Shown here piece after piece: positions 18,654 through 22,929 of a stretch of DNA of 64,000 nt. The notes under the pieces were generated by a model. The model made no database searches. It saw only the letters and a program-made list of their open reading frames with translations, and was not told where the DNA came from. Source of the stretch: Phormidesmis sp. (GTDB lineage Bacteria; Cyanobacteriota; Cyanobacteriia; Leptolyngbyales; Leptolyngbyaceae); contig CBDFJR010000005.1 in the NCBI GenBank assembly GCA_965248535.1, positions 1,920,001 through 1,984,000 of the forward strand. The letters are read 5' to 3'. Positions within the stretch are counted from its first letter, which is position 1, and the number at the start of each line of letters is the position of its first letter. The position numbers and the translations under genes were made by a program.

Positions 18654-18947
18654 ATGGCTCACAAGAAAGGTACAGGCAGTACTCGTAACGGTCGCGACTC
18701 TAACGCTCAACGTCTAGGAGTCAAGCGCTACGGCGGGCAAGTCGTTCTCGCGGGCAACATTCTAGTTCGTCAGCGTGGCACCAAAATTCATCCCGGCAAC
18801 AATGTCGGTCGCGGCAGCGATGACACCCTGTTTGCGCTCATCCCTGGCGTTGTCACCTTTGAACCGATGACCAAAGGTCGCAAAAAAGTCAGTGTCTACG
18901 CAAAAGTTGAAGCGGCTCAACCTGTTGAAGTGGCTCAACCTGTTTAA
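18654..18947 (+). CDS. rpmA: 50S ribosomal protein L27
   Basis: [24 protein letters not shown]. Confidence 0.98.
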
Positions 18948-18968
18948 TCGACTTCTAAATAGATTGAT

Positions 18969-18995
18969 AAGCTGCTCACAAGGGGCAGCTTTTTT
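18969..18995 (+). terminator. intrinsic terminator after rpmA
   Basis: AAGCTGCTC-ACAA-GGGGCAGCTT stem followed by a T-run. Confidence 0.75.
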
Positions 18996-19035
18996 ATGAG
19001 GTGACTGGCAGATTATTCTCCCAGAATTTAGTCAT

Positions 19036-19071
19036 CCTTTACAGTTCGTAATCACTCTAGTGAGCGATCGC
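19036..19071 (+). repeat. 36-bp direct repeat, left copy (ends in HIP1)
   Basis: CCTTTACAGTTCGTAATCACTCTAGTGAGCGATCGC, identical to 22894-22929. Confidence 0.95.
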
Positions 19072-19275
19072 TAGAGATGCTGCACTACGGTAGAGGACAA
19101 AACGAGTGGGTTCGGCATCAAGAATACTGGCGATTAAGGCGACAGCTTGGGTTTCTTGCTCAAAAGCTTGGCGCGCCAATTGTGTAGCCTTCTCTAGAGC
19201 ACCTCTTAAACGAGCGACTACTGCGGCTTCGGCTAAATCCATTGCTTGTTGGTGGAGCACTTGAATCTGGCTCAT
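19057..19275 (-). pseudogene. hypothetical helical protein, probably 3'-truncated at the HIP1/direct-repeat junction
   Basis: The frame runs into GCGATCGC (codons A-I-A) and stops inside the direct repeat. It resembles a longer family with EPTRSVLHRSAASLA (recalled, not searched). Confidence 0.5.
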
Positions 19276-19320
19276 TGGGGTATGCCATTTTGAACTCTTT
19301 GAGACATGGATTGAATGGCG

Positions 19321-20100
19321 ATCTAACGGCTAAAGTGAGCGGCGGCAAGAGGACTAGAACGAAGCGCAAAGGCTATGTATCGTCCGCTCCACTATGTGTC
19401 CGCCCAGCATGGGCGTGAACTAATGGGGTGAAAGTCCCCTGTCGGAGAACCAACGTCCAAAGGAACCCGAAAGTTCCGAGTGACGACAACGACTAGCTTA
19501 AGGCAAGGGCGTTTCCGCGAGGAAGGGTCTGAAGGAAGCTGGAGGCAAACCTGCGAACTGACGGACAGAAACGTCATAGAAGGCTAAGATTCCCGTGGCG
19601 AGTGAGCACAACATCACAAAGCCTTTTGGTTCAGGGAACATAGTAAATGACGCGGTTGTGCAGGGACATTCACGGTCTTATCTGGGGAGATCTGCTCAAA
19701 GGGCGGTTTGGGATTTTATGGGAGTCGGACTGAGGGCGATTTGGAAACGAATCGACAACCCACCGAACCCTACGGAAACCTAAGCAGCGCGTCTAGCGGC
19801 AACGCTAGAGGTAATTGAGCAGAAGTCAGCAGAAGCCATAGTAGCCAAATGCTCATCGTCATGGGTGAGACAGGGTGAAGGGCTGAACGTCAGAGAGCAG
19901 GGAGGAGCCGTAAAGCTCGACGGGGCGATGAACCCGGATGGGGGAGCTAACTTGTCGGCGCTTAATTGCGTCACCAGCCCTGGACATCAATTCTTTGGAG
20001 TTGAAGGGTCTAAACCTCTTTGAGGAAGCGCCCCGTGCGGAGCCGCACGCGGGGTGCTGTGGGAGCGGGGGGAGAAAATCCCCTTGCTACCCGATTAGAC
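19321..20100 (-). other. attC recombination site (about 82 nt) split by the group II intron
   Basis: With the intron removed, the minus strand reads GTCTAAC-ATA-GTGGAGCGGACG...CCGCCGCTCAC-TTTAGCC-GTTAGAT: RYYYAAC/GTTRRRY cores with paired arms and two extrahelical bases. Confidence 0.8.
19398..20095 (+). mobile_element. ORF-less group IIC intron (IIC-attC type)
   Basis: 5' end GTCCGCCCAGCATGGGCG; IIC DI hallmarks (GGGTGAAAGTCCC, TAGCTTAAGGCAAGG, TCTGAAGGAAGC, TCTTATCTGGGGAGATCTG); AGAAGTCAGCAGAAGCCATAGTAG; short DV GAAGCGCCCCGTGCGGAGCCGCACGCGGGGTGCTG with CGC triad; DVI ending CTACCCGAT; no RT ORF. Confidence 0.92.
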
Positions 20101-20149
20101 GCCGTCAGTTACGCAGAATTCCCTGAGTACATGCACGGTATTGGTGCTA

Positions 20150-20818
20150 TTAATCAATAATTACCCTAAAGGTCAAATTGATTCTCGGTTCTACCTTTCT
20201 AGATGTTTTTGGAATTTGATGCTGCCAGAAATGCTGAGTCTCACCAGCCATCAGAAGAAAACTACCATGTGTTAGCTCAACTTCCGCCTTCAGATCTTGG
20301 TCTTGCCTATGCCGAAACATAAATCTTCTTGCTCCTCCGAAACTGACAGAGCCAATTACAGGATTTTCACCTAATTCTGGCTCTGCATCTGTGTGCCAAG
20401 AGATACCATCATTTCCATGACGATAGAGATTCAGCAAAACGCTGTTGAACTCAACCTCTGAAACCTCTTCAATACGCTGCTTCACTTGCAGCAATGTTGG
20501 TGTCCAAGGTTCAGGATCGAGGTGAATACCTGAGAAGGTGTACGATTTATCCTGATCACCATACCAAGCAGTCTTTCGCGGCAAATTGATCTCTTTGCCA
20601 TAAAGCTTCATCTTGTCTTGCCGCCAGTTAATCTCATTCAGCAAGATCTGGAAAATTTCGTTGCTTCTTTGCGAGTCGAAAAAGTTTCGGTAGAAAATAA
20701 CCTTTGCGTCTGGCATAGGTAGGACTTCTCTGACTAATTCATCCTCGGCACTTGTGACCGACTCAAAACCGGAGAACAAGTCCCCTTGAGAAACATTTAC
20801 GGCAGACTTCCTTCTCAT
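20150..20818 (-). CDS. AlkB-family (ALKBH2/3-like) 2-oxoglutarate/Fe(II) dioxygenase
   Basis: LPRKTAWYGD, FNSVLLNLYR, WHTD, SVSFG, HQIPK, RINLTFR. Confidence 0.93.
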   Translation of the reverse strand: MRRKSAVNVSQGDLFSGFESVTSAEDELVREVLPMPDAKVIFYRNFFDSQRSNEIFQILLNEINWRQDKMKLYGKEINLPRKTAWYGDQDKSYTFSGIHLDPEPWTPTLLQVKQRIEEVSEVEFNSVLLNLYRHGNDGISWHTDAEPELGENPVIGSVSFGGARRFMFRHRQDQDLKAEVELTHGSFLLMAGETQHFWQHQIPKTSRKVEPRINLTFRVIID

Positions 20819-20830
20819 AAAGACTTTTCC

Positions 20831-21637
20831 TCAGCTTTGAATCAGGTTCACAGTGAATTGCCTCTCGCATACACCTATTCTACGCTCTTCATACCTTCCG
20901 GTTTTGAAGTAGAACACTTTTTTATAAATCGGCTCCTCAGAAACCACTGAGTTGTAAATTCGACCGGACTGCGAGAACAAGTCATAGAAGTTACTTAATC
21001 TATATCTACGATCGTTATCTGGACTTGTGCAGATAAATCGATTTAAGCCTCGAAAGGAACCAATTATCAACTCGTGTAATTCGTCTAAACTAAACGCTTC
21101 TACATCAATAATGTTTGAGAAAAGGTGAACCTTGATGCTATCCATATCAGAAATCAAATCGCTAGGTTGCAAGTCATCTATGTACTTACTAATTCTACGT
21201 ATGGTAGGAGTAGCATAGGCTTCAGATTGAAGCATTTGACAAGCGAGGTTGTAACCGCGCTCCAACGCTGTAAGCGAAGGCTCTACAAGCGTAATCGAGA
21301 CTACTTCGGGCTTGAGCTTACTCTCGATGAAGTAGTCAATCAAAACACAGGTCGCCAATGCTTGACCACATCCCCAGTCAATGATCTCCAATTTTTTGCC
21401 GTCAGTATAGTGAAAATTAGTTGAGGCAAAGGCTGCATAAAGTTTGTGAAAATGATGCCCACCGTAAAACGCTACATACTGGTCGCATTTTGCCTCGCTA
21501 TCCAACACTGCCGTACCATTAGCTAAAGCACTGAGAACATTTTGAACATTTTGTATATTCTTGCACTTTTCTATGCAGGGCTTGTAGATGCCATCGATAA
21601 ATCTCATGATCCCTTCTTCTGAGTTCGAGATGTTCAT
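20831..21637 (-). CDS. hypothetical class I SAM-dependent methyltransferase-like protein
   Basis: IIDWGCGQA motif I, LVEPS acidic motif II, HLFSNIIDV. Confidence 0.65.
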   Translation of the reverse strand: MNISNSEEGIMRFIDGIYKPCIEKCKNIQNVQNVLSALANGTAVLDSEAKCDQYVAFYGGHHFHKLYAAFASTNFHYTDGKKLEIIDWGCGQALATCVLIDYFIESKLKPEVVSITLVEPSLTALERGYNLACQMLQSEAYATPTIRRISKYIDDLQPSDLISDMDSIKVHLFSNIIDVEAFSLDELHELIIGSFRGLNRFICTSPDNDRRYRLSNFYDLFSQSGRIYNSVVSEEPIYKKVFYFKTGRYEERRIGVCERQFTVNLIQS

Positions 21638-21783
21638 GTAGAAGGCTCAAAAAATGTAAGACTTCTATCGGCTAGACTGCCCAAGCTACCTTCTAGATTA
21701 AACAATTACTTCAGTGATGGTTCTCCAGATTCTCAAATGTCAGGATTGCACAAGGCTGAAGTGGCAATCTCACCAACAACTCA

Positions 21784-21942
21784 GGCGTATAACTACTATT
21801 TCTGCCGTTTGAACTCCTATCAAACAGGATAAATGCCTCTCTCAGAGAAATTATGCCGTATGGAAACCGGATAACTCCCATTTTTTTAGGAATCATCCTG
21901 AATTCTCACAGGATAACTCTCCACTTTCGGGTAATTATACGG
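21784..21942 (-). other. attI-like site with phased inverted boxes (42-bp period)
   Basis: Minus-strand core GTTATACGCC complements the cassette's attC R'' (GGCGTCTAAC) at 9/10 nt; three C(A/C)GGATAA-N18-inverted-box units at 21825, 21867 and 21909. Confidence 0.6.
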
Positions 21943-22258
21943 AATGGCGCTCAGGTTTTTCGATTCTAAGGGAGCCGCGAGTAAATTGTCTCGTTCCGAT
22001 GAATCAGTCATGGCGCTGAGTCGATCGAGTCCCTGCCGTTGCTCGACTGGAACATAAATTAGGGAGAGTTTACGATCGCCCCCCCTCTTCCACAAAACCC
22101 GATCGCTTCCCTCCCCCACAAAAATCACCATTCCAAAAAACAAAAAACTCTAGTACAATACACCGCAGTGATGGAGTTATGCCCCGAAGCCTGATCTACC
22201 AAATCAGACTCCGAGGACTTCCATCCCTAGTTACCGACTAGTAACTTAGGAGGCGTTC

Positions 22259-22378
22259 ATGATTGTACACCGACAGCTTTGCTATGGGATCTTGAAAGGC
22301 TGGAATCAAGATCCTGCATACAGATTTCCCCCCAACCCAATGTCTGAGAGATCCGTGTTTTTGTCCTCTTTGAATTAA
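22259..22378 (+). CDS. putative 39-aa leader peptide
   Basis: AGGAGG 5 nt before ATG; stop lies in the loop of the hairpin covering the next RBS. Confidence 0.35.
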   Translation: MIVHRQLCYGILKGWNQDPAYRFPPNPMSERSVFLSSLN

Positions 22379-22394
22379 TCGAGAGGACAAAACT

Positions 22395-22766
22395 ATGGGA
22401 GTTAGGACGATCGTGCCTAGCTCGATTTCGTTCACCGTTGAGTTACGTTGCTCAATCGAAAAGCGTTATCGAGTCAGTGTTATTTTGGATTTGCAAGAGC
22501 GTTATATTTTCATTCCCTCTGGTGTTATCTCAGACATTAGTGATGTCATTGAAGAGTTTGTGTCTCAGTTAAGTGAGATCGCGTCTAATCAACTGGCATT
22601 CTTGAAATGGGACGGTACGAGTGATTTAACGACGGAGTATCAGATTGTTCGAGTGTTGCCGGGATATCAAGTTGAGCGATCGTTAGCAAAGTTCAACATT
22701 GTCATCGGCAGTGGTTCACTGATTCAAGTGGAGGAGTTGCACGACAAAATCATCATTCAACTCTAG
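22395..22766 (+). CDS. hypothetical protein
   Basis: 123-aa ORF with GAGAGGA RBS; no recognisable motif. Confidence 0.5.
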   Translation: MGVRTIVPSSISFTVELRCSIEKRYRVSVILDLQERYIFIPSGVISDISDVIEEFVSQLSEIASNQLAFLKWDGTSDLTTEYQIVRVLPGYQVERSLAKFNIVIGSGSLIQVEELHDKIIIQL

Positions 22767-22893
22767 ATAAAGGGAACGATCGCGAAATTACCTTTTTGAA
22801 GGCTGACCGAAATTAAGCGATCGTTCCTTAATCATCTGAAGGGCTAACATTTTAGATTGAATAGGATGAATCCTCGATCTCATTCCTAATCAC

Positions 22894-22929
22894 CCTTTAC
22901 AGTTCGTAATCACTCTAGTGAGCGATCGC
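22894..22929 (+). repeat. 36-bp direct repeat, right copy (ends in HIP1)
   Basis: Identical to 19036-19071. Confidence 0.95.

Follow-up and report, generated by a model that had tools for sequence, protein, structure and literature searches.

The window analysed here is a stretch of 64,000 nucleotides (nt) from Phormidesmis sp., a cyanobacterium of the family Leptolyngbyaceae (GenBank assembly GCA_965248535.1, contig CBDFJR010000005.1, positions 1,920,001 to 1,984,000 of the forward strand). Between its rpmA and hemB genes lies a small island that holds integron cassette genes and one cassette recombination site (attC), and this site is split by a group II intron that lacks a reverse transcriptase (RT) gene. 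We consider it likely that the intron, at 19398-20095, is a non-autonomous member of the group IIC-attC lineage, without an open reading frame (ORF), and that it was inserted into attC by mobilization in trans. The features of the split site are given below in window coordinates; a slash in a sequence marks the position of the intron, and EBS and IBS stand for exon- and intron-binding sites.

19321..19397, + strand: 5′ part of the attC, in bottom-strand reading (sequence, fold and a leave-out hidden Markov model)
19398..20095, + strand: ORF-less group IIC-attC intron, 698 nt, 5′ GUCCG ... AU 3′ (Rfam, copy register and consensus fold)
19403..19686, + strand: domain I, with the EBS1 hairpin (consensus fold)
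19687..19883, + strand: domains II and III (Rfam D1D4-1 match, helices 14-20)
19888..20025, + strand: domain IV, 138 nt, no ORF (alignment to the RT-carrying introns of genomes G018 and G000)
20027..20058, + strand: domain V (Rfam alignment, helix 31)
20060..20093, + strand: domain VI (helix 32)
20096..20103, + strand: 3′ remainder of the attC, with TAGAC completing the R″ core (GT/TAGAC)
20150..20818, − strand: AlkB-like 2-oxoglutarate-Fe(II) oxygenase of 222 amino acids (aa), the cassette gene whose attC is split (Pfam PF13532, E 9.8e-38)

An Rfam cmscan search of the whole window placed three group II intron models on this element, all on the + strand and all above their gathering scores: group-II-D1D4-3 (RF02001) at 19511-19677 (124 bits against 32, E 5e-25), group-II-D1D4-1 (RF01998) at 19788-19883 (60.2 bits against 35) and Intron_gpII (RF00029), which covers domains V and VI, at 20026-20095 (49.3 bits against 40). 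The covariance-model check proposed in the initial annotation was thus positive for the domain I-IV and the domain V-VI models alike. The ends of the intron, 19398 and 20095, were set by register with seven other genomic copies; all copies in register start after ...TGT, finish in ...ACCCGAT and are followed by T. The longest ORFs within the 698 nt encode 52-64 aa, and no RT gene is present in 19398-20095, the genome's only two matches to RVT_1 and its single match to GIIM being located on another contig. Therefore, the Rfam matches, the fixed ends and the short ORFs together identify a 698-nt group II intron without an enzyme gene, in agreement with the annotation made from the letters alone.

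The fold of this intron is conserved. A consensus structure was derived from an alignment of five ORF-less copies from four genomes (the window copy and copy 'a' of the window's own genome, G000, together with copies from relatives G010, G014 and G035). It contains 214 pairs, 49 of which show compensatory changes on both sides; shuffled controls had a mean of 20.8 compensatory pairs, none of 500 shuffles reached 49, and sliding the partners by one to three columns left only 3-13. Paired cells amounted to 96.1% in the consensus fold as compared to 36-46% with slid partners. Mispairs affect 4 of the 214 pairs in the window copy, the same number as in copy a, and 8-20 in the other aligned copies, while domains V and VI and the EBS1 loop of the window copy are unchanged. 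Its ribozyme fold is as intact as in recently multiplied copies, and it may still be able to splice.

Individual domains carry the expected elements. In domain I the EBS1 loop (GCACAACA, 19606-19613) is invariant in all five aligned copies and sits on a stem that covaries (GUGA/UCAC in some copies, GUUG/CAAC in others, the slash here separating the two strands); the ACAA within the loop is complementary to a TTGT target. Domain V, of the IIC type, has the catalytic triad CGC at 20029-20031, with its G in a G-U wobble, and a two-base AC bulge. In domain VI, A20089 is unpaired (consensus column 760) and is the seventh base from the 3′ end, making it a candidate branch point. The distal hairpin of domain III is about 30 nt longer in the ORF-less copies than in RT-carrying relatives, for which the G018 intron was compared. 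Domain IV retains a Shine-Dalgarno-like GGGAGGAG and, at 19927-19946, a block, GATGAACCCGGATGGGGGAG, that matches the RT-gene start region of RT-carrying introns and is nearly invariant in all five ORF-less copies; it holds none of the remaining ~430 RT codons. In other group II introns the start region in domain IV is a high-affinity binding site for the enzyme. By analogy, GATGAACCCGGATGGGGGAG is presumed to be a docking site for the RT protein of the lost gene.

Removal of the intron joins 19321-19397 to 20096-20100 and gives a site of 82 nt, within the 50-150 nt expected of an attC. Its R′ core, ATCTAAC (19321-19327), and its rejoined R″ core, GTTAGAC, whose first two bases are at 19396-19397, pair at six of seven positions. 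The L′ arm is at 19334-19345 and the L″ arm at 19381-19393; the L box AGTGAGCGGCGG pairs with CCG-T-CCGCT-C-CACT, with two bases, T19383 and C19389, bulged on the 3′ arm. The last four bases before the intron (ATGT) form IBS1 and the first T after it (20096) is IBS3, and the junction ATGT/T divides the R″ core after its second base (GT/T). For excised RNA, the ligated exons would read ...CACTATGT joined to TAGACGCC....

In terms of sequence, homology to uninterrupted sites is the decisive evidence that the rejoined flanks are an attC. A hidden Markov model (HMM) whose only input was a set of 19 attC-like sites of G000, all uninterrupted and with E below 1e-5, matched the rejoined site at 46.5 bits (E 7.9e-12), with the match spanning the junction. 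By comparison, 43.5 bits were obtained with the left flank alone and at most 7.3 bits with 200 shuffles. A profile of rejoined sites gave 67 genomic hits at E up to 10, many of them uninterrupted relatives, and uninterrupted sites carry TTGTTAGAC or TTGTTATGC where the intron sits in the window site. Members of this site family have the paired cores and both bulged bases in common. The initial annotation had expected excision to restore an attC of about 82 nt with paired cores and two extrahelical bases, and this is what was found.

Two genes for integron integrases (intI) score above the NCBIfam cut-off of 265, at 467.9 and 466 bits, both of them on contig C2 of the genome.

C2:161487-162425, + strand: intI (NCBIfam)
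C2:1131581-1132513, − strand: intI (NCBIfam)

Next to each intI gene is an array of attC-like sites, read on the strand opposite to that of the cassettes, and therefore the intron's strand corresponds to the attC bottom strand. Indeed, the intron is antisense to the cassette ORFs, the AlkB-like gene among them, which lie on the − strand, and it occupies the canonical IIC-attC position, xTGT/T in the bottom strand of R″; strand and position had both been predicted correctly. Five of the seven R″ bases are displaced by 698 bp from the rest of the attC, and the DNA hairpin should therefore be unable to form the R box, locking the cassette. Judged from this arrangement, the AlkB-like cassette is probably fixed in place, and it is reasonable to expect that attC recombination has been lost at the split site.

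The intron belongs to a family that is well represented in its own genome. Ten places match 19398-20095, the window copy included. Six full-length copies (a-f) are 85% identical to the window copy and 100% identical to each other over 700 nt, in six different attC sites; a degraded copy (84% identity, positions 4-698) lies in a decayed site; and an RT-carrying relative of about 2 kb (C2:1673018-1675015), which matches positions 1-447 of the window intron only, at 76% identity, is inserted in another attC at TTGT/T. The further copies and the RT-encoding parent that the initial annotation had suggested looking for thus exist, as six identical copies, one degraded copy and one RT-carrying relative. 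Upstream junctions read TTGT in seven of nine copies, the window copy having ATGT and the degraded copy TTG, with the first base lost. Among 27 good attC sites, 19 are uninterrupted and eight are occupied, the ninth and degraded copy being in the decayed site, such that roughly 30% of the recognizable attC sites in this genome carry an intron.

Two further observations concern these copies. A 132-nt fragment (locus L010, C2:378130-378261) is 96% identical to intron positions 443-574, which reach from domain III into the beginning of domain IV; it has unrelated flanks, with an uninterrupted attC about 0.9 kb away. In addition, the ORF-less copy at C2:1133221-1133920 and the RT-carrying intron at C2:1673018-1675015 occupy related attC sites whose 3′ flanks are nearly identical over 100 nt or more. 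This suggests that a cassette was duplicated and is compatible with intron-bearing cassettes undergoing recombination or duplication.

To place the family more widely we used a set of 41 genomes, comprising 40 relatives and G000. The intron was matched in 18 of them, including 15 of the 24 that belong to the same family. Of 16 informative junctions read in relatives, every one ends in GT and 12 in TTGT. Sister copies have multiplied recently in at least two cyanobacterial genomes: besides the six identical copies of G000, relative G010 (100% complete, three contigs) has nine 698-nt copies with 0-4 nt pairwise differences, in nine sites. A close relative of the window subfamily, at 95% identity and in a different attC, is found in G007. 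That copy is also the outer part of a twintron (L045, G007:C509:1-2886), with another group II intron (about 2.16 kb) inserted immediately downstream of its domain V; the second intron starts with GTGCG, encodes a 537-aa enzyme with an HNH-type endonuclease tail and belongs to a different class.

When two candidates per genome were scored, the domain IV specific to the ORF-less form was detected in 3 of 401 sampled genomes of the phylum, in one of them weakly. The same domain IV of about 138 nt occurs in all five aligned ORF-less copies, the deletion form is present in several genera, and in domains I-III the ORF-less copies are only 76-79% identical to RT-carrying introns. By these comparisons the ORF-less form is an old lineage rather than a fresh deletion, because the same deletion form is shared across genera together with the longer domain III and the retained RT start region.

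The sister intron of G018 encodes an intact enzyme of 444 aa, and the named genomes in which the closest enzymes occur are filamentous cyanobacteria of the Leptolyngbyaceae type. In comparisons with enzymes of solved structure, those of class IIC scored highest:

G018 enzyme against GsI-IIC (IIC): 465 bits
G018 enzyme against 7uim (IIC): 347 bits
G018 enzyme against 5hhj (IIC): 256 bits
G018 enzyme against LtrA (IIA): 143 bits
G018 enzyme against 6me0 (IIB): 117 bits

Full-length plasmid matches of the G018 enzyme, at about 52% identity, are ltrA genes. Two such plasmid introns are located between class 1 integron cassettes, in antisense orientation (between dfrA14 and arr-2, and between blaIMP-38 and qacG2), and both have the 5′ junction TTGT/GTACGCCCAGCATGGGC, like the cyanobacterial family. 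A maximum-likelihood tree of 46 enzymes was built from 43 of 79 enzyme loci (those with near-full-length open frames of at least 380 aa), the two plasmid introns and G018, with the chloroplast-like G007 enzyme as outgroup on a long branch and a quick search. Both plasmid introns and a cyanobacterial clade of eight rows (99) fall within a clade that comprises 39 of the 46 rows (SH-aLRT 99) and to which two Paenibacillus rows and four others do not belong. The tree thus supports a shared IIC-attC clade for the cyanobacterial enzymes and the class 1 integron introns, as support rather than proof because of the long outgroup branch and the short search. One row nested in the cyanobacterial clade (L047) comes from a 2-kb contig of a Bacteroidales bin and its enzyme is 88% identical to a cyanobacterial one; this contig has probably been wrongly binned. 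A 5′ profile matched 48 of the 79 enzyme loci, and among the 42 with a readable junction 26 had TTGT, 37 ended in GT and 39 started with GTACG.

This last count bears on the 5′ end of the window copy, for which the initial annotation gave GTCCG as a variant of GTGYG. The reading GTCCG (GUCCG in the RNA) is correct, and the 3′ end AU is present; the yardstick is not, in that GUACG begins 39 of the 42 readable junctions of relatives as well as the two class 1 integron introns. As judged from these junctions, GUACG and not GUGYG is the usual 5′ end of the IIC-attC lineage, and the window copy departs from it at position 3 alone, where it has C and all 14 other copies compared have A. Position 65 (window 19462; position 3 is window 19400) is likewise G in the window copy alone and T in 14 of 14 others. 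A compensating epsilon-epsilon′ pair between positions 3 and 65 was considered; the G also lengthens a local hairpin and the region is unalignable in more distant relatives, so the two changes could be a compensating tertiary pair or a coincidence.

The state of the cognate RT genes among the 41 genomes is as follows.

G018 and G016: open over the full length
G002, G004 and G010: one TGA each, at three different codons
G014, G020, G021 and G040: fragments with stops

In G018 and G016, which have the intact gene, no full-length ORF-less copy was seen, several of the 41 assemblies being drafts. Conversely, ORF-less copies that are complete and without interruption occur in G000, G010, G014 and G035, and none of these four genomes, for which the same limit of draft assemblies applies, shows an intact cognate RT gene. 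The simplest reading of this distribution is that non-autonomous copies outlive and outnumber their helpers. In G000 the damage to the RT gene lies at about 1673.80-1673.95 kb of C2 (L013, C2:1673018-1676239), and an IS5-type transposase gene is found some 0.7 kb downstream of the intron. The genome's other RT (L015, C2:2381100-2382221) is a 373-aa protein whose best NCBIfam matches are retron families, all under their cut-offs.

Public sequencing data offered a hint of excised RNA. Contigs of four public runs were compared with window positions 19000-20900 at 85% likeness. In an RNA library of ice, a single contig of 404 nt (depth 30.6; 22 differences and ~95% likeness to the window copy) follows the intron from 19810 up to 20094/5 and then resumes at 19397/8, thereby going back 698 nt and joining the 3′ end of a full-length intron to its own 5′ end. 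This joint matches the expectation for a full-length intron circle; a lariat through A20089 would go back 692. None of the other three runs, an RNA run (X19) and two whose type is unrecorded, shows the joint. In run X1, the sequence beyond loose ends at 19397 belongs to attC sites other than the window attC. RNA-run depth stops at the intron ends, the reads coming from other organisms with different flanks, and they are therefore no evidence on transcription of the window locus.

Taken together, these data suggest the following history. The RNA of an ancestral intron would have recognized the folded hairpin of an attC bottom strand, its EBS1 (ACAA) pairing with the xTGT that ends the hairpin, and would have reverse-spliced into R″ at GT/T; a DNA copy would then have been made by an RT supplied in trans from a related, RT-encoding intron. 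The insertion would part five of the seven R″ bases from the attC, such that the complete recombination site no longer folds and the cassette becomes fixed. We infer mobilization in trans for the window lineage because the RT-gene start region, the enzyme-binding site of other group II introns, is kept in domain IV. The dependence on a trans-acting RT that the initial annotation proposed is consistent with the retained Shine-Dalgarno and start block and with the existence of an RT-carrying relative; however, the RT gene of that relative is disrupted in this assembly, leaving the window copy with no visible helper at present.

Several observations weigh against this account. In a 99.8%-complete assembly, an imperfect tandem duplication of about 80 nt interrupts the sole cognate RT gene and leaves ORFs of 172 and 325 aa; apart from this gene there is just the retron-like RT, and no working helper is visible. 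Similarly, the RT gene of G010 is split by an insertion of about 8 kb in addition to its TGA. The window copy is the sole member of its subfamily in the genome, bar the 132-nt fragment. Its A-to-C change at intron position 3 is unique, and its IBS1, ATGT, pairs with EBS1 at only three of four positions. The DNA fold of the rejoined site reaches −15.2 kcal/mol as compared to −10.8 ± 2.3 kcal/mol for shuffles (z −1.9), and for all nine rejoined sites in G000 the z values lie between +0.3 and −5.0, with six at −1.8 or lower; taken alone, this thermodynamic test is weak evidence for attC identity. An intron-free allele of the window attC, which the initial annotation had proposed to look for, was not found among the relatives, and the four relatives with an empty spacer lack the entire island and are therefore uninformative on this attC. 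A crude consensus scan of 18900-20300 for outward promoters of the sigma-70 type gave 0 sites against 1.0 expected. Finally, the head-to-tail joint is a single assembled contig from another organism, a ~95% relative, and an RNA library may also contain DNA, which is why we count it as a hint only.

Some of these points would fit an inert relic, that is, a formerly non-autonomous intron that has since lost its ribozyme activity as well as its mobility and has simply not been removed. Such a relic could account for the GUCCG start found in no other copy examined, the IBS1 mismatch, the lack of subfamily siblings and of an intact helper gene in the genome, and the residence in a lone attC on a contig without an integrase. 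Yet just 4 of the 214 pairs are broken in the window copy, as in a copy that multiplied recently, its domains V and VI and EBS1 loop are unchanged, and relatives of its subfamily are present at a different attC in G007 and in the environmental RNA contig with the head-to-tail joint. We therefore regard complete inertness as unlikely. Since the only cognate RT gene is broken, the window copy is probably stranded at present, as a structurally intact ribozyme.

Less probable still is that the ORF-less IIC-attC lineage does not need its cognate RT, either reverse splicing without protein into folded, single-stranded attC bottom strands and being fixed by host enzymes or acting on attC hairpins as a nuclease, similar to the HYER ribozymes, that controls integron recombination. 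The pattern that invites this idea is the presence of six identical and nine near-identical copies in the near-complete genomes G000 and G010, respectively, each with a broken RT gene, together with the lack of any ORF-less copy seen in the two relatives whose RT gene is intact; we think it quite improbable. An equally small chance attaches to a related possibility, in which the ORF-less lineage has been domesticated in the manner of a HYER and is maintained not as a selfish retroelement but for some activity that needs no protein, for example hydrolysis of single-stranded attC hairpins or of other nucleic acids. HYERs are themselves ORF-less class IIC introns that hydrolyse DNA and RNA (PMC11754743, PMC12990946). 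The ORF-less lineage studied here is old, is structurally constrained across genera, has a domain III extension of its own and thrives where RT genes decay, with no intact cognate enzyme seen in any of the four genomes that have complete, uninterrupted copies. Set against domestication is the finding that every copy sits at the exact retrohoming position of the lineage, in a different attC each time, with bursts of identical copies that resemble those of a parasite and with no conserved genomic neighbour or promoter; the enzyme start region kept in domain IV would also be hard to explain without that protein. Mobilization in trans accounts for these features, and we retain it as the preferred reading.

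That the flanks are an unrelated hairpin, a terminator or palindrome hit by an ordinary terminator-targeting IIC intron, can be dismissed as exceedingly improbable: IIC introns usually insert after terminator hairpins (PMC4424553), the fold score of the rejoined site is weak and the window has no integrase gene or second attC, but the leave-out HMM separates the site from all shuffles (46.5 against 7.3 bits), the same site family forms arrays with the expected orientation beside each intI gene and shares the paired cores and two bulged bases among its members, and no T run follows the hairpin, the only terminator found by a scan being that of rpmA (18969-18991).

The wider island and its neighbouring genes comprise the following features.

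19029..22929, no strand: island of ~3.86 kb with the attC, the intron and cassette genes, between rpmA and hemB
19029-19071 and 22887-22929: direct repeats of 43 bp, 95% identical, bounding the island
19057..19275, − strand: ORF of 72 aa, no known family, downstream of the attC in the cassette direction

NCBIfam models for AlkB match the 222-aa cassette protein weakly, far under their cut-offs. The neighbouring proteins of 72, 268 and 123 aa have no Pfam or NCBIfam match, and a protein atlas search with the 123-aa protein gave no usable match. In four genomes of the same genus (G001, G003, G006 and G007) rplU-rpmA directly abuts hemB and the whole island is missing; the repeat core is single-copy in G006 and G007, the two that were read, and in G002 the repeat module adjoins hemB. 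The right-hand repeat is immediately preceded by sequence similar to the ancestral spacer, and the repeats are therefore no simple target-site duplication. No intI gene is present on the window contig, C5, both integrase-family matches being on C2, and the window has one attC-like site; therefore, this is a lone attC and not a working integron.

Within the island, 21787-22766 is a two-part repeat, consisting of ~310 non-coding nt with several GGATAAnT motifs followed by ~650 nt that end exactly at the stop of the 123-aa ORF (22395-22766, + strand). The genome contains a further 19 matches to it (81-93% identity), corresponding to some 17 copies once joined, and relatives have many as well. In G000 its copies are neighbours of attC or intron loci, one of them (C2:1130917-1131579) directly adjoining an intI gene at the 3′ end. 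The repeat may be a conserved end of the integron platform of this lineage. The spacers also contain a recurrent palindrome, GCGATCGC (for example at 19064-19071 and 22922-22929), which we take to be the HIP1 repeat typical of cyanobacteria, consistent with the named relatives.

Introns of the IIC-attC type have been described since 2002-2010. They are defined by insertion at TTGT/T in the bottom strand of R″, opposite to cassette transcription (PMC7923331, PMC3001079), and the known examples, S.ma.I2 and ltrA-bearing introns of class 1 integrons on IncC plasmids, share with the present family the TTGT/T target and the antisense orientation (same sources). As shown above, two introns of class 1 integron plasmids also share the 5′ sequence GTACGCCCAGCATGGGC, and the sister-intron enzyme groups with theirs, being about 52% identical to the plasmid enzymes. 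The window intron differs from these relatives in having no enzyme gene and a length of 698 nt as compared to ~1.9-2.0 kb, and its family differs in its longer domain III and its multiple copies in a cyanobacterial chromosome; C at position 3 sets the window copy apart. In contrast to S.ma.I2, no outward promoter was detected in the window copy by the consensus scan.

ORF-less introns of cyanobacteria that are acted on in trans reportedly belong to the chloroplast-like (IIB) class and home by long base-pairing. The window family, in contrast, is of class IIC, recognizes a DNA hairpin and has helper genes that are mostly broken. What the two have in common is that gene-less copies multiply beside RT-carrying ones (PMC4424553; Thermosynechococcus, Mohr et al. 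2010 in PMC8919778), and a survey assigns most group II introns of cyanobacteria to the chloroplast-like type (PMC8919778). Compared by described domain V features only, the IIC intron of Oceanobacillus iheyensis has the same CGC triad with a G-U wobble and the same AC bulge (PMC3669008), and it targets terminator-type hairpins. ORF-less IIC introns were named as a group, HYER, in 2024 by Liu et al. (PMC11754743, PMC12990946); as described there, they resemble the window intron in class, in size (637 nt for HYER1) and in their short target-recognition sequence, and the window family differs from them in behaving as a retroelement that homes to attC sites. The literature searched contained no description of ORF-less IIC-attC introns or of cyanobacterial IIC-attC introns, and the HYER paper may bear on this. 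What is new is the picture at the level of the family: an old ORF-less branch, recent bursts of copies, decaying helper genes and a high occupancy of attC sites.

Occupancy of about 30% of the attC sites should disable those sites and may help explain scattered, static integron remnants. RT genes decay independently across genomes while gene-less copies persist, making these introns a natural parasite of a parasite and a testable system both for trans-mobilization of IIC introns and for mobilization without any protein. ORF-less bacterial group II introns are otherwise described as rare and mostly immobile (PMC4424553); the family described here is an exception, namely an old, structurally conserved, gene-less branch of an attC-homing lineage that has multiplied very recently.

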